The translations under genes were made by a program, and so were the position numbers. A stretch of 63,996 nt of DNA, the filler included, from Stramenopiles sp. TOSAG23-6 (Eukaryota): NCBI GenBank assembly GCA_900128565.1. It is 3 parts of 3 records of this genome, joined end to end, with 100 filler letters (N's around TTAATTAATTAA, not from the genome) between each part and the next. Parts side by side here need not be neighbours in the genome. Positions count along the whole stretch, not along the records: positions 25,131 to 50,045 come from LT635999.1; 2 more parts are not named here. One strand, given 5' to 3'. Below the pieces are notes generated by a model. The model had not been told where the DNA came from. It searched no databases and worked only from the letters and a program-made list of their open reading frames with translations. Shown piece by piece: positions 4,672-63,996 of the stretch; within the stretch, counting starts at the first letter, position 1, and each line of letters opens with the position of its first letter.

Positions 4672-4709
4672 GAAAAAGAACAAAATTTTAATAGAGACTC
4701 TAATAAACC

Positions 4710-5612: not shown

Positions 5613-5864
5613 GAAATTTTTACGTACCTAATCTGGTTCACTCTTTAGTCCTTAATCCTACTTACTACTAATAGTTACAACGTTTTAACCAATACTACTA
5701 GTATAGTTAGCAGGAAAGAAGACGACTGGAAAAAAAATTTAAAAAGAAACCTTTGGTTGGAACAATCCTGTTTCGGGTCATAAAAAAACGTTACAAAAGT
5801 GAAGAATATTATTTTTGTAAATTTATACAAATTTCATTTCAAACATTGCTAAAATAAATTAGTT

Positions 5865-10598: not shown

Positions 10599-10754
10599 GC
10601 ATTCAATTCAGAAAAAAAAGTAAGAACATTTTTTTCAGTGAAAAATAAAAGCAAAATTTGTTGATAATCGGATTTTAATTTAAGAAATGTTCTCAATTTC
10701 CCCACTTAAAATAACTCACATATCCTTCATAATACTCAAGCATATAGTCTTTTT

Positions 10755-18839: not shown

Positions 18840-19157
18840 GATCAAAACTTGATTCTATAAACTCCTCAATGAGAAGATGACATTTGTTTACCTGCGAGTC
18901 AAAACAGTTTATTTTATTGTATATCCAGTAACTACTAGTAGTATGATATCAGAGATCAGGCAGACTCCAGGCAGACGCGACGGAAAACGACGTAGCAATT
19001 TATTTAACCCTAACCCTAGTTAGCATCCGCAATATCCAAGCGGCACACAACGCCACACAACGACGTAGGAGCAGAGCTCTCTATAGCTAGTAGTGAAGAA
19101 GTGCATAAGATAATGACGGTTTGAAATTTAGCAGAATATTCTCATTACCACTAGACG

Positions 19158-25030: not shown

Positions 25031-25130
25031 NNNNNNNNNNNNNNNNNNNNNNNNNNNNNNNNNNNNNNNNNNNNTTAATTAATTAANNNNNNNNNNNNNN
25101 NNNNNNNNNNNNNNNNNNNNNNNNNNNNNN
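25031..25130. other. Artificial contig linker (N-TTAATTAATTAA-N)
   Basis: Six-frame stop linker inside an N run. Confidence 0.95.
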
Positions 25131-25221
25131 AAAAAAAAAAAAAAAAAAAAAAAAAATTTTTTTAAAAATTTTTTTTTTTTTTTTTTTTGTGGAAAAAAAA
25201 ATTGTACCCAACATTTTTTTT

Positions 25222-27176
25222 TTCCCAATATAATCAAACAGAAATGGCTGGTGGAAAATCTCACTGTTTTCTCATTGAAGAAGTAAATCAACAACAAATG
25301 TCATCAAATTCAAATAATAATAAAAATTCTAAAAATGAGGAGTCAATAACAACATGTATGTTTTATTTTTTTTAATTTCGAATTTTTTTTTTTTTTGTTA
25401 ATAGTAAATTTTGTACCTAAAAATTTTTTTAGAATTTTTTTGAAATATTTTTCCAAAATACATACATATCAAGTTGTGCAGATGAAGCATCAAAATTAAT
25501 CTGGATTCGGACAATTGCTACAGAATGCCTTTTTTATGTATGTTTGGAATTTTGAAATTTTTTTTTATTTTTTTTTTTTCATTTTTTTTATTTTTTATTT
25601 TTTTTTTTCATTTTTTATATTTATTTTTTTCGGTAAAAAAAAAAAAAAAATAGCTGTACAACACATATATTTTTTAATTAAATTGTTTCTTTTGTACATA
25701 TTGTTAAAAAAAAATGCATTACAAAAAAAGGATAATGCCTCTATATTAAAATGCATGTATGTTAATTTTTTTTCAATTTTTTATCTAAATTTTTTTTTGT
25801 AGGAAATTTTGTACCTAACAATTTTTTTTTTTTTTTTTTGAAATATTTTTCCAAAATACATGACCAGTCTGTGCTTAGGACTACTTGCTACGGTTGTGTC
25901 TGGGTTGTACAAGTCACAACCACAATTGTCTATTGCTGCTATGAAAGATCGTAAACAAAGGATTAATCTGTCTCTTGGACGTTTATTACCCACCCTTGAA
26001 ATTTTGAGTGTTCATCCATTAGTAGAAATATCAGAGGCTGCCATGGCTTGTCGTAAAAGTGTTATCACAAATGATGCCGCGTATTGTACAAAAAGTAAAG
26101 AGAATAGTGTTAAGGATATACAATCGACGAATAATACAGTTTCAGAAAGTAAAGGCATTGTAGAAATCACTTCAAATAAGAATAATACAATGAATAAGAA
26201 TAATACAATGAATAAGAATAATATTATAAATTCTGTGTCCAATAAGTCACCCCCAAATCAAGAAAATACAGTAAATGACATGATTTCTGAATATATAAGC
26301 GATATTGGAAGCAATCTAGTACCTATTCGTGCTCATGGTGTTGCCGGTATTGCAAGAATTGTGAAACAATATCCAAAACTGACAGTCGATGATCCAAAAC
26401 AATGTGATATGTTATTGAATATTTTACTTTCTCAAACATTGGATGAAGATTCATATGTGTTTTTAGGTGCAATTAAGGCACTTAAAGAAATGGTAGAAGC
26501 ATCCAAATCAAAGGTTGCCCCAATGATTTGTTGTTTACTGCGTGAATTTTCTGATACCTCACGTTCTCTATGCCAAAGGCTTCGTATTGGAGAAGTTTTA
26601 TCGTGTGCGACAAGACGTCGAGGGGAAGCATTAGCATATTATTCCAAACCTCTCGTCAATGCTTTTATTGCTGGAGCTAGATGTAAATCTTCATTACATA
26701 ATGGCCGTCCAACTCTTCAATCTCATGAGTGTAAGAATATTAGTATAGATGATACTGTAAATAACAATGATGGTGAGGAAACGAAGAGACAGATTACAAA
26801 TACAGCAATGAGGACAAGTTGTATAAGTGCTTTATGTGACATATGTCAAACACTTCCTGCAGGGACTTTGCCTCAGCAGGCAGAAGTAATTGTACTTGCC
26901 CAAGCTGCTCTTCGTTTGGATTCTGATGTAAGAGTGAGACGAGCTGCAGCATTTTTGTTATACCAAGTTGTTTCAAATGTACAAAACGCAGAAGATTTGA
27001 AATCTGTAGCACCTGAAATGAAAGAAGTGTATGAAGGCATCAAAATTGGTACTAATGACGTTGATGCTGTGACAAGATCACATTGTGAAGCAGCTTTGGG
27101 TGAAATTGATAGATCTATCCGAGATTCCTTGTGTTCTGATACATCAAAAAGAGAAGTTCGAATCCGTATTTTATAA
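25222..27176 (+). CDS. TANGO6: TANGO6/RTP1 C-terminal part (5' truncated, multi-exon)
   Basis: LVPIRAHG, DEDSYVFLGAIKAL, RLRIGEVL, RTSCISALCDIC, VRRAAAFLL, DAVTRSHC. The 5' boundary is approximate. Confidence 0.8.
25356..25463 (+). mobile_element. Introner-like GT-AT intron
   Basis: acat|GTATGT..GTACCTAA..CCAAAATACAT|ac; splices ITT-Y-ISSC in frame. Confidence 0.75.
25757..25861 (+). mobile_element. Introner-like GT-AT intron
   Basis: tgcat|GTATGT..TACCTAAC..AAAATACAT|gacc; gives ILKC-M-TSLCLGLL. Confidence 0.8.
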
Positions 27177-30052: not shown

Positions 30053-30407
30053 TGCAACGTTTGCTGCGTGCGCACGATTAAGTAATTACACGTGTTTGTT
30101 TGTAGAGTCAGTACGCACAACAAACAACATATATGGTCTGGCAGTTCCTGGGTCAGCTGACAAAACTTCCTGAACAAACCTGCCCTTTTTGCTATTTGCT
30201 ATCAAAAATTTCTTATGATCAAATCTCAAATCTTGAAACAATAGCGTCATTTTTTCTACTGCAATGCAAAAGTATCTGTGAGCACTACTGCTTTATTAAT
30301 TGAATGATGATTGTAAACTCATTGTATTAACATTTGGATAGGTAATTTGTACATGCATAGGCCCTATAGGATTTGATTATATTCTAGTATTGTAGAAAAA
30401 ATATTAG

Positions 30408-31141: not shown

Positions 31142-33648
31142 TTACATATTTTTACATTTAAAATTTTTCCATTCTTTTAAAGTTGTCCGAGCAATAGGAG
31201 ATACATTTAAAGTTCGAGCATTTGCATCATCAACTCGTACAACTACGTAATCTCCACGTTTTAAAAACACATTACTACTACTTTTAATAATCTTAGTATT
31301 ATTATTATTATTATTATTTGTAGTATTATTCAAAAACACACTATTATTATCATTTGTAGTATTATTCAAAAATACACTACTACTACTACTACTACTACTA
31401 CTATTAATAATCTTAGAATCATTATTATTATTATTGTTTGTAGTATTATTCAAAAATACACTATTATCATAATTAATAATCTTCTCATCAATATTATTAT
31501 TATTACTATTATTACACTTTTTTGTATATCCATTGAAAAGACTTAACAACAAAGAAGATTCAACAGGAATATTTTCAAATACACAGCGTTTGTTGGTGTC
31601 AGTACGCCCAGTTAATTGCTCGAGCCCAGAAGCACTCACCGCTCTTCTACTATTTCCTTCAACAAGAACTAAATGAAATTGCCCAATTTCAGATAAAGCT
31701 CGTTTAGTAGCTTGTCTGGTAAACACTTCAATAATTTCACGAAGTCGCCTTTGTTTGGTCTCTTCAGGAATATTATCCTTCATTTTATGATAAGCATGCG
31801 TCCGTTCACGTTCGCTATAAGCAAACATGTATTGTTCAAAAATATTTCAAAAACATTGAAATTCATTAAGTACATAATCTCGAAATATCGGGCGTTTCTT
31901 ATAATAAAAAATCTAGTATGAAAAGAAATTATGTAAAAAATTCATGATGAAAACGTATCGAATAAAAATATTTCAAAAAAAAAAAAACATGATGTAAAAA
32001 ATTCATAATGAAAACGTACATATATGCTTGTTCAAAGCCTACAATTTCCATGAGGCTCAATGTGTCAGCATGTTCATCTTCAGTCTCATCACAAAAACCA
32101 GTGATAAAATCAGAACTGAATGCAACACTTTCCTTACCAAATTTTGTACTTGAGGAATTTTCACCAGAGATTATATTTCGTGCATTATCAATCAGAGTAA
32201 GGTACGCCTCACGAGAATACCCGCGTCGCATTCGTCGTAACACAGATGAACTCCCAGATTGAGCAGGCATGTGTAATTGATTACACAAATTATCTCTTTC
32301 TGCATGAAGCTGTAGCAAGGGCTTTGGAAAATCTTTTGGATGAGGAGAAGTATATCGAACTCTCATTTCAGGATCAATTAGAGTAATTGCATCCAGCAAA
32401 TCAGTAAATCGATGGCCATCACCCTGTCTAAGTTTGTATAAATTAGAAAAACCTTCAGCAATCATATACCCTCCCTCAGCTGCCTCAGTCTCAGCATCAC
32501 CTATAGCACGCGCAGCGGCACCACGTTCCGTTTCTTTTGATCGAGTTATACTTTTATGGTTAGGGTTTTTGTATTGCATTGAACTTTTACCAAGTTGATG
32601 CCAATAACTATTTACATTTTGACCAAGTAACGTTACTTCTTTACACCCATTATCCGACAAAGCACGCACTTCATCCAAAATACTCTCAAAAGGACGACTT
32701 CTCTCACGACCACGGGTGAAGGGTACGATGCAATAACTACATGTATTGTGAAAAAGTATATCAACTTCGAAATTAGGGTCATGGTTAGGACAAAACCTTT
32801 GTAGTAGTAGGTACGAAAAAAATTAAAAAGAATGATGAAAACGTACACATGTTATTACAACCTCTCATGATACTACACCATGCAGAGACATTACTCTTTG
32901 AAGTTCGAACTGGTTTGACGTCTGCATATGTTTCATCAAGACTTAGTTGGACGTTCATTGCCCGCTCACCTCCCTGGACAAGCTTGATTAAGTGTGGCAA
33001 GTCTCTGTAAGCATCAGGTCCAGCGATAAGATCAACAATTTTTTCTTCTTCCAATAACTTTGATTTCAAACGTTCAGCCATACACCCAAGAACACCCACT
33101 ACTTGATTTGGTTTCCGACGTGGAGTGCCATGCTGAGCAACTCTCTGTTTTCTCGTCGAGACAGTTTTGTTCTTCAACTCACGAGCAGCGGCCTTGCGCT
33201 CTCCTGTCATATTCCGAAGTCTATTTCTTATTGTATTTTCGGCTCCATCTCGTATAGCACATGTATTTATTAGGACGATATCTGCTGAATTTTCATCAGT
33301 TGTTTTCTTGAAACCTGCATCATCGAGTAAACTGCACACAATTTCAGTGTCAGAAACATTCATTTGACAACCATACGTCTGAATATAATATGTACTACCC
33401 GGTACTTCCAAAAGAACTTGATCAAGAGCATCGGTATTATGATGACCAAATACATGCGCTTTCTGAAGATCTAAGGAAGAAACGGCTTCATTTGAATTTG
33501 CCATAAAGTGCTTGAGAGATAAAACGTCCTCGTCCTTCAACGTTCGCTTTCCTTTCCTAGCCATTTCTGAACCTTTTGATACCACAACTTGTCGTGCTTT
33601 AGAAGAAAATACACGAGATACAAGGTTACATGGATACAACAATCTCAT
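31142..33648 (-). CDS. CDK5RAP1: Mitochondrial tRNA methylthiotransferase (MiaB family), 3 exons
   Basis: [24 protein letters not shown], spliced [38 protein letters not shown] domain. Confidence 0.92.
31827..32019 (-). mobile_element. Diverged GT-AT intron
   Basis: tatat|GTACGT..ACAATACAT|gttt; restores QAY-M-FAYS. Confidence 0.8.
32741..32846 (-). mobile_element. GT-AT intron inside the radical-SAM motif
   Basis: atgt|GTACGT..CCTAAC..ACAATACAT|gtagt; restores CNNM-C-SYC. Confidence 0.88.
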
Positions 33649-33910: not shown

Positions 33911-34037
33911 CTACGTACGCGTACGACGGGAGTCATACGGAGACAGGTACATGTAAAATGCTCTGCACCACAATTTTATTATTAGAAAGTAAAATCAAAA
34001 CAAAAAAAATCAATCAAAATTTTTGAAAAAAATTATT

Positions 34038-37000
34038 TTATATCTGCTGTTGTGAATTCGAGAGCATTTGCATCATTAACTGTCGCTGTTGCATTAATCT
34101 CAACTGCAGTTGCTGTTGTTGCTGCTGTTGTTGTTGTTGTTGTGGTTGCTGCTGTTGTTGTTGCTGTTTCTGTTGTAGTTGTTGTTGCTGCTGTGTTTGT
34201 TGTTGTTGTTGTTTTTGTTGCTGCTGTTGCTGTTGTTGCTGTTTTTGTTGCTGTTGTTGTTGTTGTTGCTGCCGTTGTTGCTGTATGTAATGCATCTGCT
34301 GCATCCGTTGCTGAGCAAGTTGATACTGTAACAGTTGCTGCTGTCGTTGCATTAAATAATTATGTTGTTGTTGTTGATATTGTTGTTGCTGTTGTTGGTA
34401 TTGTTGTTGCTGTTTTTGTTGTTGTTGTTGTTGTAGCTGTTTTTGTTGTTGTTGTTGTTGTTGCTGTTGTTGATACTGTTGTCGCTGTTGTTGTTTTTGT
34501 TGTTGTAGTTGTTGTTGTGCGTATTGGTATTGTTGTTGTAGTTGTTGTTGTAGCCGTAATTGATGCTGATATTGTTGTTGTATTTCGTTATTTCCTACTT
34601 GTTTGTTAATATTTCGACTATTTCCTACATGATCGTGAATATTCCGACTATTTCCTTGTGATATCAATGAGTTTCTATCAGTTTGTTGTTGTGATACATT
34701 TTTTTTCTTCCCATTCGATTTTGATGATTTGGACGAAATTCGAGCTTTTTTATAATTCTTTTTCAATTCCTCTTCATTTTTTCTTTTTTTAGTTTTCTTC
34801 ATCCCAGAAAAATCAGTAAACCAAGTTAAACTATTCAAAGTTTCATTGAGCATTTTTGAAGATTTTGTTATCTTTTTAACTTTATTTTTTAAATTATTTG
34901 CTTCGAGAGTTAATGCTTTTGCAGTAAAAGGTTTGACGACCCAATCATGTATTNTGAAAAAAAAANTCGTATAAANTNCGTTAGGTACAAAATTTTCTAT
35001 GAAAAAAATAAATAAATTTGAAATTGATAAAACGTACATGATGTCGTTTCTTGAAAAGATTACCCAAGCGATGAGCATACTTAAAATAAATCGAGTCTCC
35101 TGGATTGTACAATTTAGCATTACGAAAAATCAATTCCATGTCAAGCTTAAATTGTGTATATAATTTTAGGAAAATATTTCAAAACTTTCAACTCAATTAG
35201 GTATAGTACAAAAAAAAATCATTACAGATTGATCAAAAAAAAAAAAGAAAAAAAAATGTTAGGTACAAAATTGTGTACGAAAAAAAAACAAAAAGATAAC
35301 ATACATGACTTCGATATTTTCCATCCATTAGTTTTCGTTGTACTTCAATCAGAGACATAGGTTGTTCAATTATTGTATAATACTGAGGAGCGACTTCTTC
35401 AGTAACTGGGTGTAAAAAAGGCTCTGATATATCAAGTTCATTGATACTTGCCCAAACTGCTGCACAATTTCTTAATTTTTTTTCAGGATTTGTTAAATTT
35501 TTTCGTTTCGGTTTTGTTTTTTTAACGATTTTTTTTTTAGTGATTTTACTTGAATTTTCTTTTACGTATACTTTTTTACTATCATTATCATTCGTTCTCG
35601 GAGTATTGTCATCAAAACATTCTTTTGCTAATTGATCCAATTCAAAATCAAGATTAATGCGAGGTTTTGTATTTTTTCGAAGTTTTGGTTGAAGATGATC
35701 AGGGATCAGAGAATCATCACATTCAAGCCCCTGGCGTTTTTGATTAAATCGCCATTGTCGCAATGCACTTCGTCGTTCTCTTTCTTCCCTTGCTTCTTTT
35801 TCTTCTTCTGTTTTTTGTTCAGCAAAAGCAATCATTAACAACTGCTTCCTTTTACTATACTGGGCCTTACTATTTTCGCGACGTTCCAGGCGAAGCCGAC
35901 GAGATTCTTGTTCTCTGAACTCTTTTTCAGCTTTATCTGCTTTTTCTCGTTCAATTCTCTCCTTTTCCCTCTTTGCCTGTTCTAATTCAGCTTCTCTTTT
36001 TCGACGCTCACGTAACTCTTTTGCCTTCTCCTTATTTAACAACAACTGTGCTTCTCTTCTAAAACGCTCTTCTCGTTCTTTTTTTTCTATTTCTTCTCGC
36101 TGGGCAGTATTTTGTGCAACACGAGATGACCGTTTACGTGGCATTAAACTGATGAGCCGTTGTTTCTCTTCTTTCGCTTTTTGCTTTTCTAAAACTTCCT
36201 TTTGTTCATCCCAATCAGAGATGTATTCTAGGAAAATATTTCGAAAATGTGAAATTCGTCAGGTACAAAGTTTAAAAAAAAATGTTTTTTTTTGTTACGT
36301 ATGAAATTTCGTATGAAAAAAAAGTAAAGAAAATGTAGGCAAAACATTCTAGGTAATATTTCAAAATTTTTTTTGAAAAATTGTTAGGTACAAAATTTCG
36401 TACGAAAAAAAAAATAGAACGCACATCATCGTTTCAAGGTGATCTCGAATCGGTTGCTCCAAGTCCCAAAATTCTTTATTTTTTTTTCTTGATTCGCGTT
36501 CTTCTTTTGCTTTCTTCAATTCCGCTTTTGCTTTCTTCAATTCCGCTTTACTTGCTTTTTTATTTTTTTTATTTTTTTGAGTTTTCTTGTTTTTTTTTGT
36601 TTTTCTCAAAGGTTTTACAGCCTTCTTTGTAAATTGACTTAACAATTCACGAATATTAGCAATACCCGAAGCAACTAATGTCCATTTTGGCTCCGCGAAA
36701 TTTTTCCAGGAAGAGATTCGTTTTGAAGTCTCCTCTATAAAATTACGATGCTCACAAAGTTCACCATCAGAATCAACATCTTCACTTGCAACAAAATTAC
36801 ATTGTTTTTCGTGTTGGTTCACTTCATCTAAAGTTCCTTCAAAAGGACAACCATTTGTCTCGCATTCATATTCAGCCTCTGTTTTGTCTTCACATTTTCG
36901 TTGTACGGTTTGTCTGTAGACACGAAATTCTTTCCAGAAGGATTCAAACCAAAAATATCTAAATCCATTACGATCTACCGCAAATGGTTCGACTCGAAGA

Positions 37001-38944: not shown

Positions 38945-40606
38945 TTAAGTAGATTTATTTGCATCAGCCCAAAGATCAAGACCACTTTTAAAAAGTGTTC
39001 TATCTAATGTTGACGTCATATCTGAAGCTTCCCCCAATAAAGAATGAACCTGTGACAAACCAATAGTATCTCGTCTTTCTCGTTTATGCGGTTTGTCGAC
39101 TATTTGTTCTTGTTCTTCACCTTGTTCGACGAAAGATGGGAAACTTCTCAATGATTTCAATGAGTGTGAAACTTGTTGCAGTGGATAATTCCATGTACTT
39201 GTATTCCCAGCAGAAGCTTCAGAAAAGTTTGATGTACCATTGTTAGAACCGTTACTAAAACCATATTGCACACTATTTTTCTTGGTATCAGTATTGTCCT
39301 CCCAAACAGATTCACCTGTGGATTCATTATAATAATAATATGCATTTTGCATTTCATCAAAAGCTCTAAACCAACCGTCATTTTCACTATAATTATTGTT
39401 TGTGTGACTACTATATTCACCAGTATCCGTACTTTGGTGAGATGATTCTTGAGGTATAGACCAAACACTCTCGCCAGTAATGTTATTTATATAATAGTAT
39501 GCGTTTGACGTGGAATCGAAACGTTTCTCCCACTGAGATGCTGTTGTATTAGGGTTAGGGTAATTGTCTACATTATCATCCTCGCTGCTACTGGTACCAG
39601 TATAAGTGCTACCACTAGAGCTTGTATCAGTATCCACTGCATTATCAAATACGGGCGATGCAGGGTTGCTATCGTTTTCTTGTTCACTATCATGCTCCAG
39701 TTCCTCTATTGAATCTATCTCAGCTTCTAATTCTCCTGCTCTGATCTCACCAGTGACCAAATGCTCGAAGTAGTCAACCCCCCAGTCATTATCATGTTTA
39801 CGGACCCAATTTGCATCTGTCTGCCAGTCATAATCAGGTGGTAGTGGTGGATTGAAGGATGAACTTTCGTGGGCTGATGATGGGTTAGAGTTAATGCCAT
39901 CCACTAAATAGTTGGGTAAGGACCCGTCGGAATCTTTCATTAAATCATCCGCCGTGTATGCAGCTGGTGTATATTTATTACTTGTATCATGAGAAATATC
40001 ATCCAAAGATAATTCAACCTCTGTACAGTCTCCAAGTACATTTGAGACCATCGTTCTTCCAGAATCTCCCATTGCGAGCTCTTGAAAGTCTAAATTTACA
40101 CTATTGTTATTATTATTTGTTGCTACCATATTCGAAATGATAGCATCGGTACCAGATGCCTGTCCGACTTCAGTAGAATTAGTGTGCTCAGTATTGAATG
40201 TCTTTGTTTCTTGAATTCTTTTTTGAGCTTCCAGTACAGCCAAGTCAGCATTCATTTTTGCTTGTGATTTATGGCGCCCAAGATGGAGAAGTCGTTCTAT
40301 AGATCTCATCCAAGACTCTCTATTTTCCACAGTTTCAGAAAAAAGTTCGATAGAAAATTTACTCTTTTTTCTAACTCCTGTTGCACGAAAACCAAACAAA
40401 TCATCCAATTCCTTTTTTGGAGCTTCGTCTATAACTTCAACAAATGCACCTTCAGCACTGAGGTCAATTCGACCCTTTTGTGTGTCGCACGCTGGACTCT
40501 CATACCATATGAGTTGACCTGTCCGATTATGCACCACAAAATACTTCTCAGAGAAACTGACACGTCCAAATATCCCATGTTTTACTAAAATTAGAGGTCC
40601 TCTCAT
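38945..40606 (-). CDS. PH and WW domain protein
   Basis: N-terminal PH (LIWYE..KGRIDL..RESWMRSI); WW motifs W....D....YYY.N..TGESVW. Confidence 0.8.
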   Translation of the reverse strand: MRGPLILVKHGIFGRVSFSEKYFVVHNRTGQLIWYESPACDTQKGRIDLSAEGAFVEVIDEAPKKELDDLFGFRATGVRKKSKFSIELFSETVENRESWMRSIERLLHLGRHKSQAKMNADLAVLEAQKRIQETKTFNTEHTNSTEVGQASGTDAIISNMVATNNNNNSVNLDFQELAMGDSGRTMVSNVLGDCTEVELSLDDISHDTSNKYTPAAYTADDLMKDSDGSLPNYLVDGINSNPSSAHESSSFNPPLPPDYDWQTDANWVRKHDNDWGVDYFEHLVTGEIRAGELEAEIDSIEELEHDSEQENDSNPASPVFDNAVDTDTSSSGSTYTGTSSSEDDNVDNYPNPNTTASQWEKRFDSTSNAYYYINNITGESVWSIPQESSHQSTDTGEYSSHTNNNYSENDGWFRAFDEMQNAYYYYNESTGESVWEDNTDTKKNSVQYGFSNGSNNGTSNFSEASAGNTSTWNYPLQQVSHSLKSLRSFPSFVEQGEEQEQIVDKPHKRERRDTIGLSQVHSLLGEASDMTSTLDRTLFKSGLDLWADANKST

Positions 40607-43343: not shown

Positions 43344-46033
43344 TTAACTTCTTTCACACGTACTAACTCTTTTATTACCCTGGATTGGATTTTGACTATC
43401 CACTACATCATGAGGATCAGGATCTCCTTGAGGGAAACCTAACAACCATGTATTTTGGGAAAATATTTCAAAAAAAAAAACTAAAATTTGTTAGGTACAA
43501 AATGTCGTACGAAAAAAAAACTCGAATTTGAAAAAAAATAAAACATACATAGACAAGCTGATGATTTTCTTTCTGAAACTAAATTATTTAACATGTCACA
43601 CAAAATGTCACTACTCGATTCAAGTAATACTAAAGTTACCAAACGCTCATAACACGTGAAACTTTCATATTCTCCAGTATTTCCTTTGTTTTTACGCATA
43701 TTTGCTAGATATTTATCAAGATGTTTTTTTGCGGTCCTTGCGTCATTGACATTTAGAAGATTCTTAATTTCACATAAGGAATATAAAGTGACATCCGATT
43801 CACTACAGAATTGTCGCAGAGTTGCTGCAGTTGTTTTATGAGTAAATGTAATATTTTCAGGAATTGTTGAAATATCACAATTCCCATTGTTTTCTTTGAT
43901 TAATCCATATCTTCCTAAAAATTTATCATTTCTTGAAGACTTTTTGAAGAATTTGATAGTTTTACAAATTAATGATTCAGTTACGTTTAGGTTTGGTTCA
44001 TTAGATTCACTCGGAGTATTAAATTCTATAGTATCATGTATTGAATCGCCTATTGTAGAAATTGTAGAAATTGTAGAACTAGGGTTAGGGTTAGTAGAAG
44101 GGACAGTCACTTCTGGACTAATTACTGTAGATAAATTAGTTGTTGAAGTTTTGCCTTCACCAACAGACAAATTAGTTGTTGAAGTTTTGCCTTCACCAAC
44201 AGACAAAATAATATCTCCATTCGTATTATTGGTTGCTGCCGCTGTCTTTATTTCTATAGAATTTGTAGATGTAGGAACATCATTCATTTTACAATCTATT
44301 TCATGAAATGCTCTTTTCCGAGCCACGCGTTTTATTATTGGAGAATCTGTATCACATTTCGTCTCTAACGAATTTTGAATTTGTGTCTTCTCAGCATCAT
44401 CCTCTCTAGCATCAACAATATCAGTCTCATCTAAAATGTCCATATTTGTCAAATTAAGTAATCTATCATTTAACTCAGCATCTTTAGAAAGACCTTTCTT
44501 ACATGAAGAAATTAGTTTATCCACAAAAAGTTGAACTTCTTCATATATTCGATGATTACTATTATGGATTGTTAGAGTAATTGAATTATCCTTTGTGCGT
44601 TGGGATGAAATTTGAGTATTTGTAGCTTTGGAAGCATTATCATCATTCACAAGCTTTCGAAGAAGCAATTCCAGAACATTTTGACTAAACAAATGTGCAA
44701 ATGCTTTATCAATGACGACAGTATAAGGAATTTGAATATTTGCAGTTTCTTTTAATAACATTTCTTCTTCATTCACTGTAAAATCTTCTGCTCCTTTTAG
44801 TTTCATTTCTTCTTCATCCACTGTAAAATCTTCTGCTCCTTTTAGTTTCATTTCTTCTCTATACGCCTCAAGATCTTCTGCAACATTTGATTCCATTCGA
44901 TATGCTTCAAGATCTCCTTCAAGATCACCAGAGTCAGAGTCACATTCGTCGTTTTTCATTTTAGAGGTTTTAGATTTTTTTGACTTTTGTCTCTTCGATT
45001 GTGAATGTTTTGGAGAGTTAGAATTAGGAATCTTCCTTTTTTTTGATTCCTCTTTTTTTTTAGTGAATGAAGGTGATTTATCGCCGTCCATTCCAACAAA
45101 ATTAAATTTAACTTTGTCTCTACCTCGGGGTCTATGTATTTTGGAAAAATATTTCAAAAACAATTGTTAGGTACAAAATTTCGTACGAAAAAAAAATTCG
45201 AATTTGAAAAAAATAAAACATACAAATTCCTGATGTCGGATTTCTGCGACTGGCCATTGATTTTCGGATACAACAGTATGACTGTAACATTTTTCAGGAA
45301 TTAAATTTACATCAATGTCTAACACTCTCTGTAACTCTACTGAAGAGCGACAGGTTTTTGAAAGACTGGCATTATGATAGTAGACATCAGCTCTTCTAGA
45401 CCCATTTTTTTGAGGTTTTTTACGCCAATTTAGTTTAATAACCCAACCAGGGGGAGGCCATGATAATGATTTCTTTCCTCTTCTAGCACCTTTTGGACTC
45501 TTCTTTTTTATTACTTTTTTTACTACTTTTTTTACTACTTTTTTTACTTTTTTACTTTTTTTGGTAATTTCATTATGAAACATACTATCCGATATACTAT
45601 CCAAGGGATCTAACACTTTCACTCTTCGCAAACCACTCTGTGGTACTTTTGAAACCACAGATGTTTTCAAAGCCGAATATCTCCTTTTATTTTCTTTTTT
45701 TCTTTGTTCGCTGGCTAAGTCTCCTATAGACGGAAAAGTAGCTTTCGGAGTTTTGGACTTAGATTTTGATATACTTGGATGCTTTTTTTTATTACTAATT
45801 GACTTCCTCAACACTGATTTATTACTGATGCTAACTTTTCCAGAGAATTTAGATGAAGGCTTGTGCGAAGTTATTGTTGACTTAAACTTTTTAGGTCGCG
45901 TAGTAGTTGTGGTTACTTTTACTTGCTTTGGTTCACTTTGAATTTCCTCCACATCATTGAATATATCCATAATATCATCAGACAAATCCATATTGCAACT
46001 CTCTGAAAAATCGACCTCTGTCATTGTGATCAA
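43344..46033 (-). CDS. MBD (methyl-CpG-binding-like) domain protein, 3 exons
   Basis: PPPGW....RK......RADVYY......CRSSVEL motif; ORFs joined by the introns at 45134-45223 and 43448-43548. Confidence 0.6.
43448..43548 (-). mobile_element. Introner-like GT-AT intron
   Basis: ctat|GTATGT..TACCTAAC..CCCAAAATACAT|gg; an in-frame AG 9 nt downstream also exists. Confidence 0.7.
45134..45223 (-). mobile_element. Introner-like GT-AT intron
   Basis: gaattt|GTATGT..TACCTAAC..AAAATACAT|agaccc; in frame only with the AT acceptor. Confidence 0.82.
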
Positions 46034-47348: not shown

Positions 47349-48752
47349 TCAAGGTTTAGTTAATGGTTTCCTAGCGGTAAAAAATGCAGTGTTATAAACA
47401 GTTCCCATCATAGATAATCCATCGGAAGCATATGTCGAATGTCGTTTTTCTTCTCTTCTTATTATAAAACCGAAAGACTTAACTACATATTTTGTAAAAA
47501 AATATGTCAAGTTTGCATTTTGTTAGATCTAAAAAAATATAGGATTTGAAATTGAATAGGTACAAAGAAAAACATAGAAACTAAAAGTAACGAAGAAAAC
47601 TTACATGAATGAGTTCATCATAGCTCAGCTCTATTGACTGCTCATATCGACAATCATTTTCACCCACTGAAGCATTAGCCCAATGATACAAAAGAGGTCC
47701 CATATTTATCCACACACCTCCGGGTTTTAATAATTTCCATATTAATTTGATATATCGTGAAAACATATATTACATTTGAAATTTGTTAGGTATGGAATTC
47801 TCATTGATTATTTTTTTTAAATATTGATGAAAACATACATATAATCAAATATATTCGGTGCTGTATCTATAAAAAAACATGTCAAAATAGCATCCCAGTT
47901 ACTAGATTGCTTACTATACACTTCCAAAAACTCACCAGCACACATCGAAACATTCAGGCCAGGATTTTTATGCATTACGTCCATTGGAGATAGGTCTGGA
48001 ATATATATAGGTCGCGCCATGTTGGCATTTGACCAATTATTGCATCTCTTATCTATCCAAGGATGAATACAAATTTCGTCGACATGAGAAGTTTTATTGA
48101 GCATATAGGTACTGGCTAATAACATAACATATGAAAATTCATTGCCCTGAACTTCATATCCTCGACTGGCCAACTCAAGTACGAGCCTACCCGCGCCACA
48201 ACCTGGGGCAAGAACTCGCTGTACGTTTTTATTGGCGTCAGTTACCGGAAGACAATTTTCCAACTCTTCTAACATTGGAATCATACACTGTGATCGCTCT
48301 TCAGAACCTTCAGACGACCACTCTCTAGAAAGTTGATGGAGAGTACTAACTACTTTTGACATACTATGTCCACTACTTTCGATAACAATATCGTCTCTCT
48401 CAGGAATATGACTTTCATTAGCAATATTTGGTAACGACTGTCGCCCATCAAGTCGCTCTTCCTCTGTAGTTGATTGTTCATGTTGAAAACTATTATAACT
48501 GCTCGCGATTTTCCAACATAAAGAGTTATTCGTATGCACTGCATTCACCAACATATCAATATTGCAACATACACCTTTTTTGCCTCCAGGAAGACGCGAT
48601 AACTGGTCAGGTGAAAGTGATAACATATTGTTTCTTTTTCTGATCACGTCCTTCATAGCATACGCACCATACTCGTTGTAAGATTTAACAACATCAAGAA
48701 AATGTCTACGTTCTTCCTCACTACCCACTTCGGGTAACTTTCCAGATGACAT
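47349..48752 (-). CDS. CARNMT1: Carnosine N-methyltransferase (N2227 family), 3 exons
   Basis: [58 protein letters not shown]. Confidence 0.9.
47487..47604 (-). mobile_element. Diverged GT-AT intron
   Basis: attcat|GTAAGT..TCTAAC..CAAAATAT|gtagtt; gives ELIH-VVKSFGF. Confidence 0.78.
47750..47838 (-). mobile_element. GT-AT intron
   Basis: tatat|GTATGT..TACCTAAC..GATATAT|caaa; gives [16 protein letters not shown]. Confidence 0.82.
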
Positions 48753-50045: not shown

Positions 50046-50145
50046 NNNNNNNNNNNNNNNNNNNNNNNNNNNNNNNNNNNNNNNNNNNNTTAATTAATTA
50101 ANNNNNNNNNNNNNNNNNNNNNNNNNNNNNNNNNNNNNNNNNNNN
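50046..50145. other. Artificial contig linker (N-TTAATTAATTAA-N)
   Basis: Six-frame stop linker inside an N run. Confidence 0.95.
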
Positions 50146-50228
50146 GNAAAAATNTTTNAAAAAAAAAAACGTTAGGTACAACATTTCGTACGAAAAAAAA
50201 ATCGAAATTGAAAAAAAATAAAAAATAT
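50146..50228 (-). mobile_element. Introner copy at contig edge, donor reads ATATTT
   Basis: Internal TTTCGTACGAAATGTTGTACCTAAC matches the family; low-quality edge. Confidence 0.65.
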
Positions 50229-51642: not shown

Positions 51643-53687
51643 TTATGGAAGTTGAGAATTACACGGCCATTGAGGACTATTAAGAGGATCAAATGTCTCT
51701 TTGATTGTCCTTGCAGAAGTCCATTTTAAGTTATTCAATATGGTACCTGTCTTATCATTCGTACCTGATTTACGAGAGCCACCAAAGGGTTGTTCCCCAA
51801 CAGCAGCACCTGTACATTTATCATTTACATAAAAGTTACCAGCTGCATTTTGTAGTATGTTTTTTGGAAAAATATTTGAAAAAAAAAAACTTAAATTTGT
51901 TAGGTACAACATTTCGTACGAAAACCAAAAAAAAAAATCGAATTTAAAAAAAAATAAAACATACATAGAGTCTGCAACACGAACTGCTCGTCTGCATTCA
52001 GAAAATATTGAGCCAGTCAGAGCATATTCAGATGTTTCATTACATATCTCAAGTGTTGCTTCATAATCTGCTGCATCATACGTATGTATTTTGGAAAAAT
52101 ATTTAAAAAACAAAATCTAAAAAAAATTGTTAGGTACAAAATTTCGTACGAAACCAAAAAAAAACAAAAAAAAAAACAATTCAAATTTTCAAAAAAATAA
52201 AACATACATATACTGTTAGTACAGGTCCAAATAATTCATCACACATTGTCGAATATTTTGGATTCTTGGTAACAATAATTGTAGGTTCAATGAAAAATCC
52301 CTTTGAATCATCATATTTTCCTCCTACAAGAACTTCACAATCAGATGATGCATTTGCTTCATCAAGATACTTTGCAATATTATCAAACGAGCTACGATCA
52401 ATTACAGCCGTCATGAAACTGCCAAAATCAGTTGAACAACCTACTTTTAGTGTATTTGTAGCTGCAATGAGTTTATCCTTTACCTCATTCTCCCAGGAAT
52501 GTTCTGGAATATATGTATTATGAAGAAATATTTTACATTCAAAAGTAAAAAAAAATGTTAGGTACAAAATTGTCTATGAAAAAAAAAAAAAAATTCGAAA
52601 TTGAAAAAAAATAAAACATACATAATCGACTTGTGGCTGAACATTTTTGGCCTTGATAATCAAATGCTCCACGTGCAGTATGATTCACTACAGAATCCAT
52701 GTCTGCACTCTCATGTACGAAATGAAAGTTTTTACCTCCCGTTTCTCCAACGACACGCGGATATGATTTGTAACTTGCAATATTTTCAGCAACACACTGC
52801 CAAATTGTATGAAACGTACCAGTACTACCCGTGAAATTTACTCCACCAAGATCTTTGTGTGGAATCGCAACATTGCCTACTGTTGATCCACTACAAGGGA
52901 TGAAATTAATTACACCATCAGGAAGTCCAGCTTCCTTGAAAATTTTCATGACAAGCCAACTTTCGTGTACAGCAGTAGATGAAGGTTTAAAAAGGACAGT
53001 ATTTCCCATTAACGCTGGAATTCCAGATAAATTTGCACCAAGAGCACAAAAATTAAATGGAGCAACCGCCAAGACAAAACCTTCTAATGCACGATGTTCA
53101 ATACGATTCCAGTAGTTTTGAGCGCGGTACAAGGAAGGTGGTTGAATACTGTAAATCTCGGATGCATTCTTTACACCAAAGCGGANAAAATCTGAAATCT
53201 CTGAATTATCAATATCAGCTTCACGAGGAGTTTTTCCTGTACCCAACATTATAGAGGCATTTAGTTCTTCACGGTATTTTCCAGCACATAAGTCTGCAAC
53301 TTTAAGAAATACAGCAGCTCGGTCTTCAAACGGCCAATTAGCCCATTCACGTGCCTCTGTGCTCATGGCCGCATCTATTGCTGACTGAATTGTAGCTTCA
53401 TCTGCCAGATGGAATTTACAAATCTCGTGACCATGCTCCGTTGGCATAACCTGACTTACCGTGTTTCCAGTAAAGACATCTTTACCATTGATAATGCATG
53501 GAATTTCCACATGGCTTGCATACAACTTGTCTACTTCTTCTCGAAGCTTGGCACGATCCGAAGAACCAGGAGCGTACGTCTTTGGAATCTCATTTCGAAT
53601 CCAACTGAAATCCCAATTAGCAAAACCTGATACAGCTCGCGTTGGTAGCCTAGCTAAAGTCATCCTACGTACACTAGAGGAAAGCAT
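51643..53687 (-). CDS. ALDH4A1: Delta-1-pyrroline-5-carboxylate dehydrogenase, 4 exons
   Basis: APFNF, FTGSTGTF, GETGGKNFH, GQKCSA, ELFGPVL, AAGNFYVNDKCTGA, QPFGGSRKSGTNDK. Confidence 0.93.
51857..51964 (-). mobile_element. Introner-like GT-AT intron
   Basis: tctat|GTATGT..TACCTAAC..CCAAAAAACAT|acta; gives ADS-I-LQNAAGNFY. Confidence 0.85.
52084..52207 (-). mobile_element. Introner-like GT-AT intron
   Basis: gtatat|GTATGT..AAAATACAT|acgtat; gives GPVLTVY-TYD. Confidence 0.83.
52513..52621 (-). mobile_element. Introner-like GT-AT intron
   Basis: ttat|GTATGT..TACCTAAC..TAATACAT|atatt; gives KCSATSRL-Y-IP. Confidence 0.87.
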
Positions 53688-54004
53688 CTTCTTGTTTTTT
53701 TGAGCCAATCTATTTTTTAACTGTGTTTCTTCTAAAGTTTGTGTGTTTGTTTCTAACTTTTTCGCAAATCAAAATAAAATCAATCGAAATGGACGGTCAA
53801 AATTTGATCATTAATAAATTTGTTATTTAGGGTTAGGGTTCAGGTTCAGATTGAACTTTGTGTTCAAATCAAAATCAAATATAACCATTAATAATAATAT
53901 ATAGTAGTAGATCCTAATGACTAATCATATATACAAAAAACACAAAAAACAATTATTTTTTTAAAAAACTTGTATTCATTTATCTTTCAATTTCTCAAGT
54001 TATC

Positions 54005-55132: not shown

Positions 55133-55703
55133 TCATATATTATGCTGATTACAAGCGTTCACCGGTTCGTATTCAATCAGCGATACATTATTATCAGACG
55201 CAATACTCTTAGGAGCAGCTGGTGTTGATTGGACGTCATCTGGGAATGGTGAAACTTTCCCCCACTTATCTACAGAAAGACGCATAAAATTTCCTACCAT
55301 GTATTTTGGAAAAATATTTAAAAAAAAAATCGTTAAGTACAAAATTTCGTACGAAAAAAAATAAATTCGAAATTAAAAAAAATAAAACGTACATTATCAC
55401 TTTACTATTGCGTAAAACTACAACATTATTTTCTTGGAGAATTTTTATCTGCTTATCCTGTGCTGAAAACAATACACAACCAGACTCATCCCCAATGAGT
55501 ACATCGGCTTCAAGTAAAACCCTTCCATTAGGGAAATTTGTTTCAAAGATTGTTTTGATTTCTATTACTTTTACAACTAGATTTGCACCACACTCATTTG
55601 GATCTAACTGAGATATAGTAAGATATGATGCTCGAGCAAGATTTGCTCTTTCTGGTGAATTTTCAATAGTATTGGCTGTTGCGTCCAAGGTTGAGTGTTG
55701 CAT
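55133..55703 (-). CDS. Small OB-fold nucleic-acid-binding protein, 2 exons
   Basis: NLVVKV..LIGDESGCVLFSA..LRNSKVIM...MRLSVDKWGKV..NNVSLIEYE. Confidence 0.8.
55299..55392 (-). mobile_element. Introner-like GT-AT intron
   Basis: ataat|GTACGT..TACTTAAC..AAAATACAT|ggta; gives SKVI-M-VGNFMRL. Confidence 0.85.
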
Positions 55704-56242: not shown

Positions 56243-59152
56243 ATGAGTAGTGAGAGTCACAAAAAAGATTTGAATAAAAAACAGTCGTCGTTGAGGCTTG
56301 AGGCAATTGGTTTCGGTGCCTCAACTAAAAAAATCATCGGTGCCTCGACTACAACTGCACAATCAACACCAGAGTTGTTGAAATATTCAAGTACAAATAC
56401 TTATAATGAAATTCCTATTTCTTCATATGATATTAAAACTTCTCAAAAAAGTGTAGCACCTCTAGCTTCAATTCAACCAGCTTCATCTACTGTAGAAGTG
56501 TTTGCCAAAAATGGAGGTAAATCAGAGGTAGATTCTAAAGGAAAATATGAATATAGAAGAGTTATAAACAGTACTTTTAAAAAGCAAATTCAAGATGAGG
56601 ATAAAAAAGCTTTTCCGCCATCAAGTGTAGTAGATAAAGAGAAAAAAAATAGATCAAAAACGAGTTTTCTAACAAAACAAACTACACAGAATTCAAAAAC
56701 CACTATTGATAGTACACAAAGAGTAAGTAATAAACAAAAAANAAAACAAAATAATAGTACAATAAAGAATGTAGGTGCTTCTTTTACCCGATCTACAAAA
56801 TCTACAAAATCTAAAAAAATAAATACATTACACCCAAACAATAAAAATCAGAAAAAAATGACTATAAAGTCAAGAAGAAAAACTCTCCGTTTTAACACAA
56901 TGTCGCCAACACCAAGTTTGCAAACAAAAAAGGAAAGAGCTCTTCGGTATGCTAATGCAGCGCAGCAGAGGAAACAAATGCGTTCATTCAAACCATTACA
57001 AAATAAAGATCTTGTTGAAAAAACGGCTCCTCTCCTAAAATCGATTTTAGAACCGAAAATTAAAATATCAATTTTAGAACCGAAAACTAAAACTGTAAAA
57101 AAATCTGATGATATTATCAATTTGAAGGCTGTACATCCAGTGAAAAGTAATTATGTCAATGATTCTATCTCACCGATATATAAAAATATAAAACCAAGTA
57201 TGAGAGGCAGGCAAATTTCATTAGTAGAATCGGGGGATATGTATGTTTTATTTTTTTTTTTTTTTTCGGTAAAAAAAAATCGAATTTATTTTTCGTACGA
57301 AATTTTGTACCTAACATTTTTTTTTTGAAATATTTTCCTACAATAAATACGAAAACAAAATAATTTGTTCTTAGATTTAGATATACTGCGTATTCAGCAG
57401 GAGTATGAAGACAAATTAGAATTAGAAGAGTGTCAACTTTCACCTGGTGGTACGTATAAAGCTGGCCCTGATTGGCGCATTAAACAAGAAGGAATTACAA
57501 ATCCGCCGTCTGGAACCTCAAAGGCTGTACGTCTGAGATATCGTACTGTTTCCGCACGAGCTCGAAGTAGACGAGGCAGTTTAAAGGATGAATTTCTGAC
57601 ATTAACAAATCTTGGTCGGGGTGGTTCTAGTGTTGTATTTAAAGTGATACATGTTCCATCTTTACAAGTTGCTGCAATTAAAAGAATTCGAGTTGGTAGC
57701 AAACAAAAATGTGAAGTTGTTCGACATGAACTTCAGGCACTACATGCTAATATTGTCCCATTGGGAACTGTAGTGACACAGTCACCGTGTCCTAATATAG
57801 TAACATTTCATGATGCTTACACAGATATCCAAGAAATGAGTGTCGGTCTTGTGCTACAATATATGGATGCAGGTTCTCTTCAGGATTGTGTAAATGATTT
57901 TCCCACGACCCGAACTTTAAATGGAAAAATAATTCCAAAACGTCCAGAAGATTGGACCGAAAAATCAATTTCTATAGTTTTATATGGTATTTTGAAAGGT
58001 ATTGAATATTTGCATTCACAACAAAAACTTCATCGAGACATCAAACCTTCAAATGTATTGCTATCATCAGCTGGTGAAGTTAAAGTATCTGATTTTGGTA
58101 TTGCGCGTACTATATCTGAAATATCAAGCGGGGTAAATGACTCTATTTATAATCATAATACTAATAATAGTATCGATACCAAAGAAAGCACAAATAGCGA
58201 TACACTTTCGACTACAAAACTAAATCGACCAAAACAATCTATCTTATCTCTTGAATCAAATAGTTTAGATAGTGTCAATTTTCATGGCCAAAAAACATTC
58301 ACTGGGACAATGCTCTATATGTCGCCTGAACGTCTTGAAGGATTGCATTATTCCTACGCATCCGATATTTGGTCAGTAGGACTAATCATTATGGTCATGG
58401 CATTGGGTCAATTACCTTTTCAGGGAGTCGATGGTTTTTGGGGAATGAAAGAAGCTTTGAAGACATCAAATGGCATTCGGAAGATTGCTGATAAAATGAT
58501 GCAAGGAAAACATTCATTATCATCTGATTTATGTGATTTTTGTAAACAATGTTTGCAAATGGATCCAAATAAACGACCATCAGCAAAGCAACTTTTACAA
58601 CATAAGTTCCTATCATCGGCAGCAAAAGCTACTATAGGGCAGCGTAGGAGAACTGTAAAAAAAATGATAGGTAGTAGGATTCCATCCTATGAATACCGTG
58701 TGAGAGAACTTGAACATATAGCGGATGTAATTGCTCAAGAGTATAATGCACGTCTTCTCCGAAGCCGACCATCATCTGCACCAATACTACCAACTGATGA
58801 TAGGAAAAGTAATCGAATCGCTACATTGAAATCATTACGACATATTCCTAAAAAATTTCCAATTATCAAAACTTCAATAAATAACAACAATACAGATCGA
58901 ACGCCTTCGCCGCCTTCTAGACAAAAATACACACAAAAAAATGAGTATAATAGTTATGATGCCGGTGTTGGGGAATCTGGATTACAACGTCCAGCTGCTG
59001 ATGCAATTGCTCGCCTTGCAGTGCAACTTGGTCTTCCGGTTGAAACAGCACAATTAGTATTTATAGATGCTTTTTCAAAAAATATGAAAGATTCGCGTAA
59101 AACTAAATCTTATTCAACAACTATACGCGCAAAAAAGCAAAGTATTCAATAG
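56243..59152 (+). CDS. MAP kinase kinase (STE7-like) with long basic N-terminus, 2 exons
   Basis: LGRGGSSVV, AIKRI, YMDAGSL, HRDIKPSN, SDFG, TFTGTMLYMSPERL, SDIWSVG. Confidence 0.85.
57241..57348 (+). mobile_element. Introner-like GT-AT intron (AAT end)
   Basis: gatat|GTATGT..TACCTAAC..CAATAAAT|acga; joins the two ORFs in frame; downstream AGs are out of frame. Confidence 0.72.
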
Positions 59153-63941: not shown

Positions 63942-63996
63942 ATGTATTTTGGAAAAATATTTCAAAAAAAAATTCGTTAGGTACAAAATTTCGTAC
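63942..63996 (-). mobile_element. 3' half of introner, truncated at window/contig end
   Basis: GTACGAAATTTTGTACCTAAC..CCAAAATACAT|. Confidence 0.8.

Follow-up and report, generated by a model that had tools for sequence, protein, structure and literature searches.

Introner elements were reportedly described from Micromonas pusilla and Aureococcus anophagefferens by Huff, Zilberman and Roy in 2016, and we know of no explanation for bursts of intron gain other than introners. The Micromonas introner IE1 takes one of its splice sites from the duplicated target (PMC11282704). In the larvacean Fritillaria, 3' AT acceptors form the most frequent class (44% of introns in F. pellucida and 34% in F. 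borealis; PMC13326754); its AG-AC and AG-AT introns contain both duplications and inverted repeats, with exon sequence forming the 3' site, F. borealis being a precedent for a duplication that supplies a non-AG acceptor (PMC11282704). The introners of Amoebophrya sp. A25 and A120 have direct repeats of 3-5 nt and inverted repeats of 8-20 nt, and no dominant termini (PMC7789003). What defines ISL2EU (PHIS) transposons is that they duplicate 5'-AT-3' at their A/T-rich targets, A/AT/T (PMC4482050), and a recent introner survey gives AG and AC as accepted 3' sites (PMC12130899). Within the searchable library, a literature search returned no account of any protist whose introns are uniformly GT..AT, and single-cell genome papers on marine stramenopiles are, in the extracts available, silent on splice sites (PMC5778133, PMC5269757). 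Here we analyse a stretch of 63,996 nt from the uncultured marine protist Stramenopiles sp. TOSAG23-6 (GenBank assembly GCA_900128565.1), hereafter the window, which holds a family of repeated introns with GT..AT ends. The copy first flagged in a preliminary description of this DNA lies at 45134-45223 on the minus strand.

We conclude that these are probably spliceosomal introns of a single introner family, spliced as GT..YAT and spread by insertion of the element. It is well supported that the family is of the introner type and is spliced as GT..AT. Read from 45223 to 45134, the flagged copy is GTATGTTTTATTTTTTTCAAATTCGAATTT-T9-CGTACGAAATTTTGTACCTAAC-AATTGTTTTT-GAAATATTTTTCCAAAATACAT, and the coordinates and consensus first given for it are exact on re-reading of the minus strand. 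Its removal leaves a frame that is open for 810 nt upstream and 1650 nt downstream; the host gene has no Pfam match, and an MBD-like motif in it was recognised by eye only. A 22-mer core occurs 12 times in the window at up to 3 mismatches, with 0 occurrences expected from 100 shuffles. A family profile seeded with eight full copies matches 17 stretches at E <= 2.4e-4, the eight seeds among them, all within 25,177-63,996; three diverged members (32846, 47838 and 47604; copies are named here by a bounding coordinate), which have the same ends and different interiors, were spotted by eye and by reading frame. The census stands at 16 complete introns and four copies truncated by contig or window ends (Table 1), a recount that returns the 16 copies in unrelated genes of the preliminary description and adds the four cut ones.

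Ten well-aligned copies are 67-92% identical pairwise over their whole length (mean 81.5%), and their conserved blocks include CAAATTCGAATTT, CGTACGAAATTTT and GAAATATTTTTCC, for which no splicing role is known. Introns of unrelated genes are thus alike over their full length, the host genes being as diverse as those for P5C dehydrogenase (P5CDH), a kinase, a bromodomain protein and CDK5RAP1-like, CARNMT1-like and RTP1-like proteins. All copies lie sense to the host gene, the four partial ones being judged by context. The family resembles the Micromonas and Aureococcus introners: in a marine picoeukaryote, short, non-coding, near-identical introns occupy genes that are unrelated, the element brings one splice site, the other is proposed to derive from target duplication, and exact excision leaves one target copy. 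Unlike the AT-ended introns here, with their putative 2-nt duplication, those introners end in AG, and the Micromonas duplication is of 3 nt.

The evidence supports exact excision of the copies as GT..AT introns, as the preliminary description had held. Removal from GT to AT joins long open frames at all 16 introns, five of which interrupt the codon in phase 0, four in phase 1 and seven in phase 2. Read-through meets a stop within 17-124 nt at nine of the first ten copies tested; at the tenth, 51964, the frame remains open for 319 nt because the 108-nt intron has no in-frame stop. Seven junctions can be placed at the exact codon by means of homologues, a Pfam profile or a solved structure: three in P5CDH, one in the bromodomain, two in the methyltransferase and one in a radical-SAM motif that is considered below. 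All eight P5CDH homologues align across the three junctions of that gene; residue numbers at the first are consecutive in seven (e.g. 360/361) and overlap by 4 in the eighth, and the third intron, if retained, amounts to 36 extra codons (108 nt) relative to every one of them. In the bromodomain, the last residue of the exon is number 318 of the open reading frame (ORF); Pfam position 53 falls at residue 317 and the following exon opens with position 55, the profile running continuously across the junction (53/54 to 55). The two methyltransferase junctions are likewise continuous against the solved human enzyme 5yf0_A, at 277/278/279 (copy 47838) and 319/320 (copy 47604).

The exact removal from mRNA that defines an introner is also seen directly, for one intron. 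A contig of 603 nt from a polyA seawater metatranscriptome (run X6, record 18) covers 52248-52512, resumes at 52622 and continues to 52959, omitting exactly the 109-nt copy 52513-52621. A second RNA contig (run X7, record 24) reaches only to 51858, where copy 51857-51964 has its 3' border, with 185 of its letters unplaced among the matches listed. At copies 55299, 57348 and 63942, seawater DNA contigs of set X3 extend 27-42 nt into the element (record 3 runs 28 nt into the first and record 8 runs 27 nt into the last, while record 5 begins inside copy 57241-57348); wild DNA thus contains the elements, and their removal takes place at the level of RNA. It is important to note that stretches without RNA cover are uninformative either way. 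A search for an RNA-derived protein over the 32846 junction gave no match above 57% identity over most of the query, 87% being reached over only 41% of it, and thus no such protein across the junction. From the polyA metatranscriptome run X7, 1461 contigs map here, mostly on element copies; RNA libraries thus contain many copies, either as unspliced or retained introns or as DNA carry-over.

These data bear on the proposition that the copies are not introns, and are removed from DNA like the internal eliminated sequences of ciliates, or that the RNA contig comes from an insertion-free strain. We consider it very improbable. The short direct repeat and inverted termini are formally like those of TA-bounded eliminated sequences, and the skip was seen in one RNA contig only; against this, the elements occur at identical sites in contigs of bulk seawater DNA, ORFs longer than 1000 codons are found with the standard code, and the copies are strictly sense in orientation and carry GTATGT and ACCTAAC signals. 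Furthermore, read-through of the first two P5CDH copies meets a stop after 80 and 24 nt, and the frame-open third would add its 36 codons, found in none of the eight homologues. With three copies interrupting one conserved enzyme gene, that gene would be dead or altered unless spliced.

The last two intron bases are AT in 16 of 16, which agrees with the earlier count, although the figure is partly by construction, the AT end of four diverged copies being the in-frame end nearest to the consensus. The base at -3 is C in 12 introns, T in three and A in one. Since this position varies and AT occupies -2 and -1 throughout, the conserved acceptor signal is YAT/, that is, the canonical YAG/ with its last base altered. 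The donor is GT in all 16 (GTATGT in 10, GTACGT in four, GTGCGT and GTAAGT in one each), and a branch-site-like box, (T)ACCTAAC, located by the pattern in 12 copies, lies there 31-45 nt from the 3' end and is followed by T runs. Of the marks of a canonical U2-type GT-AG intron, the copies thus have the donor, the branch site and the pyrimidine tract, and lack the YAG acceptor. They lack those of the U12 type, the 5' end being GTAYGTTTT and not /RTATCCTT, with no branch box TCCTTAAC 10-20 nt from the end. What is distinctive is that all is canonical except the last intron base, in every intron seen in 39 kb. On the resemblance of these motifs, removal would be by a U2-type spliceosome.

An ordinary AG acceptor does not account for the junctions. 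In six of the 16 copies an AG that does not keep the frame lies between the branch box and the 3' end, and the AG 4 nt past the AT of the 47604 intron is out of frame. The copy at 32846-32741, in the CDK5RAP1-like gene, splits the radical-SAM motif GC-N-N-M-C-S-Y-C, whose CxxxCxxC spacing is kept only by removing 106 nt; use of the AG 4 nt downstream would produce a frameshift or CxxxxC. This copy also speaks to the register of splicing. Most copies are flanked by AT on both sides, and there GT..AT, TG..CA and AT..AC yield identical mRNA. At 32846 the upstream dinucleotide is GT, so that the three registers give Met, Ile or Thr, and Met stands at the junction in 40 of the 41 homologue fragments covering the site. 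Met arises only from GT..AT or from TG..CA, shifted by 1 nt, the register shifted by -2 giving Ile. GT..AT and TG..CA are indistinguishable because the exon base at -1 is T in 16 of 16, and we infer GT..AT over TG..CA.

The same residue excludes the AT..AC register at 32846, where it would place Ile. As a general alternative, the copies would be AT..AC introns in which the 5' copy of AT is the donor and the terminal AC of the element the acceptor, with a tolerated A1-C(-1) pairing. The flanks AT/GT...AC/AT do allow such a reading, as in U2- and U12-type AT-AC introns, in the 12 of 16 copies that have AT upstream and AC at -4,-3, for which the mRNA is identical, and AT..AC is an accepted splice-site pair, a 3' AT being off the usual lists (PMC12130899). 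We nevertheless regard it as improbable. Four copies (57241, 35304, 47838 and 47604) have no AC at -4,-3, and two (45223 and 32846) no AT upstream; the invariant GTAYGT would fall at +3 to +8, by established knowledge off register for pairing with U1 and U6. Nor are the copies U12-like, for the 5' box is absent, as is ATATCCTT, and the branch box, at 31-45 nt from the end, is wrongly spaced.

GT..AT splicing invites comparison with the two non-AG systems named above. As in the MITE-derived introns of Fritillaria (MITE, miniature inverted-repeat transposable element), where 3' AT occurs at genome scale and intron positions are species-specific, the acceptor is AT. Fritillaria is, however, an animal in which most introns begin with something other than GT (AG-AC and AG-AT being prevalent) and the termini are very diverse, whereas here a textbook GTATGT and a yeast-like branch box go with one pair of termini in 16 of 16. 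Amoebophrya is like the present case in being a marine protist with repeated, non-GT-AG introns, direct repeats over the exon-intron boundaries and complementary ends; hairpins are predicted there, whereas here the repeat is of 2 nt, the complementarity of the ends is minimal, no significant fold is found and the terminal pair is uniform. A consensus RNA fold has 0 pairs, and a single copy folds at z -0.80, with 47 of 200 shuffles folding as well. The idea that paired ends define the 3' site is unsupported by these folds.

Evidence for recent gain comes from P5CDH. All three introns are absent from five relatives that are 72-79% identical (L001, L002, L003, L004 and L011), and the gene is uninterrupted in all of these but L002, an absence in line with the insertion proposed in the preliminary description; the relatives come from a metagenome scan of this one gene, and L002 alone among them is certainly genomic DNA, because it has a GT..AG intron of its own. 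Lineage-specific positions, the other mark of an introner, are thus seen for P5CDH only. That intron of L002 (1136-1251) is canonical, GTACGT...CACAG, and differs in position from the P5CDH introns of the window; relatives with 63-74% identical P5CDH have their own introns at other positions (L002 1136-1251; L007 2230-2317) and a higher G+C. The change to AT ends must thus postdate the divergence of the lineage from these relatives. The even spread of codon phases fits recent insertion. No copy was found with the family profile at E <= 0.01 in 20 P5CDH relative loci (83 kb), the closest P5CDH matches being metagenome or EukProt gene models of 72-83% identity. A 21-mer core has 0 matches in bacterial and archaeal genomes and 0 in viral contigs. 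Matches to the 3' block, four bacterial or archaeal and one viral, were set aside as chance, all covering only the last 20-26 positions of the model.

The family is, on a rough measure, abundant in seawater. On 13.8 kb of the window we find 7830 contigs of the DNA set X3 and 2922 of X4, almost all on copies, and the summed X3 depths are 1864-11543 in element-holding bins and 0.8-9.4 elsewhere, values that are not a copy number. These figures suggest that the family numbers hundreds to thousands of copies in the X3 population. They also bear on a more conservative account, in which the copies are ordinary old introns, alike through strong constraint on splicing signals in an intron-poor, A/T-rich genome. 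Extended conserved splice motifs are frequent in intron-poor protists, and much of the element is indeed T runs. We nevertheless find this account scarcely probable, given that conserved blocks lie outside any splice signal, that profile matches span the whole length, and that all three P5CDH positions are empty in relatives. In addition, the phases are about even whereas old introns favour phase 0, and thousands of contigs bearing the element occur in seawater DNA.

The flanks bear on how the family spread. The dinucleotide before GT is AT in 14 of 16 introns, TT at the flagged copy 45223 and GT at 32846; as AT makes up 9.45% of window dinucleotides, the probability of at least 14 in 16 is 4.5e-13. 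The exon base before AT (-3) is Y in 14 and the base after the intron R in 14 (P = 0.002 each), giving a palindromic site, Y-AT-R, and figures identical on recount to those of the preliminary description. The termini GTAT..ATAC form a perfect 4-bp inverted repeat, and in most copies GTAT(G)TTT/AAAATAC extends this to 7 with a bulge. Of the imperfect terminal inverted repeats first described, then, the complementarity is present in most copies, while an excess over what a 5' splice site and A/T-rich sequence would produce is not demonstrable. The terminal AT of the intron may be one copy of a 2-bp AT target-site duplication, a proposition that we place just short of even; such an origin is plausible. 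The preliminary description further had the duplication supply the acceptor, of which AT on both sides in 14 of 16 is upheld, and the 32846 copy, without a duplication, is not accommodated. Its remark that AT is an unusual duplication is contradicted by the ISL2EU transposons, defined as they are by 5'-AT-3' duplications (PMC4482050). Compared with ISL2EU by target and by proteins, an AT is present here as well, whereas our target flanks (Y in 14 and R in 14) make Y/AT/R and not A/AT/T, and neither a DDE/HTH/THAP transposase nor an ORF with a YqaJ domain was found in the window.

On the preferred reading, the following course of events is proposed. A copy would be transcribed in the sense direction within its host gene. 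Its 5' site, GTAYGT(TTT), would act as a strong, yeast-like donor, and the (T)ACCTAAC some 31-45 nt before the 3' end as a putative branch site followed by a T-rich tract. Removal would run from G1 of the GT through the T of the terminal YAT, the acceptor being YAU/ where other eukaryotes have YAG/. The first step would follow normal chemistry, and the second would accept U at -1. The family would spread as a short non-autonomous element inserting into genes at Y-A-T/R sites, the presumed mode of mobility, and so create new lineage-specific introns.

Several points weigh against this. The direct RNA evidence comprises one intron in full and one as a contig end, and both are AT-flanked on both sides, so that RNA alone leaves the register unfixed; the metatranscriptome contig could in principle derive from a strain whose DNA is without that intron. 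The AT ends of the four diverged copies were, as stated, chosen as the in-frame ends nearest to the consensus. A non-exhaustive scan for 5'-site-like sequences ending long ORFs gave only family members and unconvincing sites, and no canonical GT..AG intron; the AT end may thus be special to the family or the general rule of the organism. No small nuclear RNA (snRNA), lariat or branch point was seen, the spliceosomal mechanism resting on resemblance of motifs. The short terminal inverted repeat coincides in part with the 5' splice site, and the GTACGT copies show no covariation. The 32846 copy splits the conserved codons ATG TGT as ATGT/GT, has GT upstream and still ends in AT; as the pre-insertion ATG TGT has no room for an AT duplicate, this copy is a counter-example to strict AT duplication. 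No empty allele was found, and at the P5CDH sites of relatives the codons are too diverged (72-79% protein identity) to show a single AT. No antisense and no clearly intergenic copy occurs in the window, nor does a transposase or longer element, a weak negative given that 30 of the 38 listed ORFs (>=200 aa) were scanned and in 64 kb only.

What would mark a MITE, namely copies in both orientations and outside genes together with an autonomous partner, is thus not seen in the 64-kb window. The preliminary description had called the family an introner of the MITE kind. As an introner family it stands; its origin as mobile DNA does not find the transposase, antisense copy or empty allele that would bear it out, and the longer element with the same terminal repeats and a transposase, to which that description looked, did not turn up among the 30 ORFs scanned.

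The other main possibility for the terminal dinucleotide is that AT belongs to the element, the upstream AT reflecting a site preference or an exon-end consensus. Stated in full, and in that form rather unlikely to our mind, the same family with the same GT..YAT splicing would have an intrinsic AT and no duplication, and would have spread by reverse splicing, with reverse transcription and recombination, or by duplication-free insertion. The exon-end Y-A-T would be a proto-splice-site or a preference of U1 or U5, MAG/GT..YAG/R with both G changed to T, and such a YAT/GT...YAT/R consensus fits the flanks equally well. Every judged copy is sense and none is clearly intergenic, as reverse splicing predicts directly, and the 32846 copy has its GT upstream inside conserved Met and Cys codons. 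Furthermore, the exon T at -1 (16 of 16) is steadier than the A at -2 (14 of 16), resembling a splice-site consensus, and the young-looking flagged copy 45223 already has TT upstream. Insertion with an AT duplication is in turn favoured by the palindromic Y-AT-R, such as a transposase target would be, by termini ATGTAT..ATACAT that are inverted repeats, and by two tandem twins joined at AT, which fit repeated insertion at a duplicated site. ISL2EU elements do make AT duplications (PMC4482050), and most described introner families are DNA transposons (PMC11282704). As to orientation, the genome is about 90% coding, and selection alone would purge antisense copies.

Two perfect 12-nt palindromes, AAATTCGAATTT and TTTCGTACGAAA (e.g. 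window 45186-45197), lie among the inner conserved blocks and could be sites for a dimeric DNA-binding protein. TTTCGTACGAAA occurs seven times in the window and AAATTCGAATTT exactly once.

We tentatively raise a broader possibility, one that we would sooner doubt than accept. The lineage may have replaced AG by AU as the 3' splice-site dinucleotide throughout, so that essentially all of its introns, possibly thousands, are GU...YAU copies of a single introner family seeded by an ISL2EU-type AT-duplicating transposon; the duplicated target would serve as both exon-end consensus (YAU/GU) and acceptor (YAU/), and the second-step machinery would be re-tuned to U at -1. If so, it would be the first case of homogeneous non-AG splicing in a unicellular organism, with 5' site and branch site still of textbook form. 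Heterogeneity marks the known non-AG systems (Fritillaria, Amoebophrya, euglenids), whose 5' ends are odd as well; a single change from YAG to YAU lets one ask in isolation how the second catalytic step reads the last base, and splice sites forced into non-canonical form by an element show how far the spliceosome can bend. The family offers a simple natural case for the spread of mobile introns and the choice of intron end, in which the link between target-site duplication and splice-site consensus becomes testable. With a wild population represented in public seawater metagenomes and polyA metatranscriptomes, junctions, branch points and alleles can be read without culture. At a practical level, gene finders that require AG will mis-annotate the genes of this organism.

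Table 1. Copies of the intron family in the window, with strand, length, codon phase and the basis of each assignment
Feature	Coordinates	Strand	Details
Flagged copy	45134..45223	-	90-nt intron GTATGT...CCAAAATACAT, phase 0; profile E 4.7e-18
Copy in the same gene as the flagged copy	43448..43548	-	101 nt, phase 1; profile E 6.5e-21
Third P5CDH (ALDH4A1-like) intron	51857..51964	-	108 nt, phase 2; profile, homologues
Second P5CDH intron	52084..52207	-	124 nt, phase 0; profile, homologues, frame
First P5CDH intron	52513..52621	-	109 nt, phase 1; direct RNA evidence and homologues
Copy	55299..55392	-	94 nt, 5' GTACGT, phase 2; profile, frame
Copy	25356..25463	+	108 nt, phase 1; profile, frame
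Copy upstream of RTP1-like ORF	25757..25861	+	105 nt, phase 2; profile, frame
Copy in protein kinase gene	57241..57348	+	108 nt, phase 2, ends ...CAATAAAT (A at -3, no AC)
Copy in bromodomain gene	34947..35037	-	91 nt, 5' GTACGT, phase 0
Longer copy inside bromodomain	35158..35304	-	147 nt, phase 0, ends ...AAAATTATAT (T at -3)
Head-to-tail twin	36221..36424	-	204 nt, 5' GTGCGT, phase 2; two profile matches
Head-to-tail twin, second CDK5RAP1/MiaB-like intron	31827..32019	-	193 nt, phase 2, 5' GTACGTTTTCAT subfamily
Diverged copy splitting radical-SAM CxxxCxxC	32741..32846	-	106 nt, upstream dinucleotide GT
Diverged copy in carnosine N-methyltransferase-like gene	47750..47838	-	89 nt, phase 2, ends ...CGATATAT
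Diverged copy	47487..47604	-	118 nt, 5' GTAAGT, phase 0, ends ...ACAAAATAT; frame, 5yf0_A
3' half, cut by contig end	49992..50045	-	profile E 2.2e-11; linker of N runs and TTAATTAATTAA
5' part, cut by contig end	50146..50228	-	profile E 1.6e-9; 5' end ATATTT, low-quality, single Ns
3' half, cut by window end	63942..63996	-	profile E 1.6e-10
Probable 3' part, predicted end, just past linker	25131..25234	+	weak profile match, E 0.017

Each of the two head-to-tail twins is spliced as one long intron, the inner ends being damaged at the joint, ...CCTAGA-AT-GTTTTG... in 36221-36424 and ...ATTCG-AT-ACGTTTTC... in 31827-32019. The partial copy at 25131-25234, about 10 nt before an ATG, is a possible intron of a 5' untranslated region.

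The window is a chain of contigs, with N runs and a TTAATTAATTAA linker between them at 24496-24615, 25031-25130 and 50046-50145. The contig ends at 50045 and 50146 both lie inside element copies, as expected of an assembly that breaks at a repeat, and single Ns occur in or near copies at 34954-34978 and 50147-50158. The first contig (1-24495, 24.5 kb with long ORFs) has no family copy, its best profile matches being at E 0.5 and 4.3, and all 20 copies fall in the 39 kb of the other two contigs; introns are either very unevenly distributed, or more than one genome has contributed contigs. Directly after an N run, 24616-25029 holds two tandem units of 207 nt that are 100% identical and may be an artefact of assembly or amplification.

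Rfam and tRNA scans of the window gave no match, and hence no snRNA among them. The window has a G+C of about 35% and is densely filled with long ORFs in the standard code. They encode eukaryotic CFAP61, a SUN-domain protein, a ferric reductase, a kinase and a mitochondrial carrier, and further P5C dehydrogenase, CDK5RAP1/MiaB-like and carnosine N-methyltransferase-like proteins and the bromodomain protein. A long ankyrin-repeat ORF with 99-nt repeat units occupies 27311-30085 on the minus strand, and 34026-34500 is a low-complexity coding stretch with a period of 9-12 nt. Telomere-type motifs (two units of TTAGGG/CCCTAA) are present between ORFs at 19008-19018 and 53827-53838, and within long ORFs at 39549-39560 and 44080-44090. 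Lastly, the plus-strand ORFs 19155-19862 and 19853-21754 are in different frames and share 10 nt, and nothing intron-like separates them. In the best homologue of the pair (P0001, 1062 aa) a DOMON domain is fused to the ferric reductase, and the pair likely reflects a frameshift, either a sequencing error or real.

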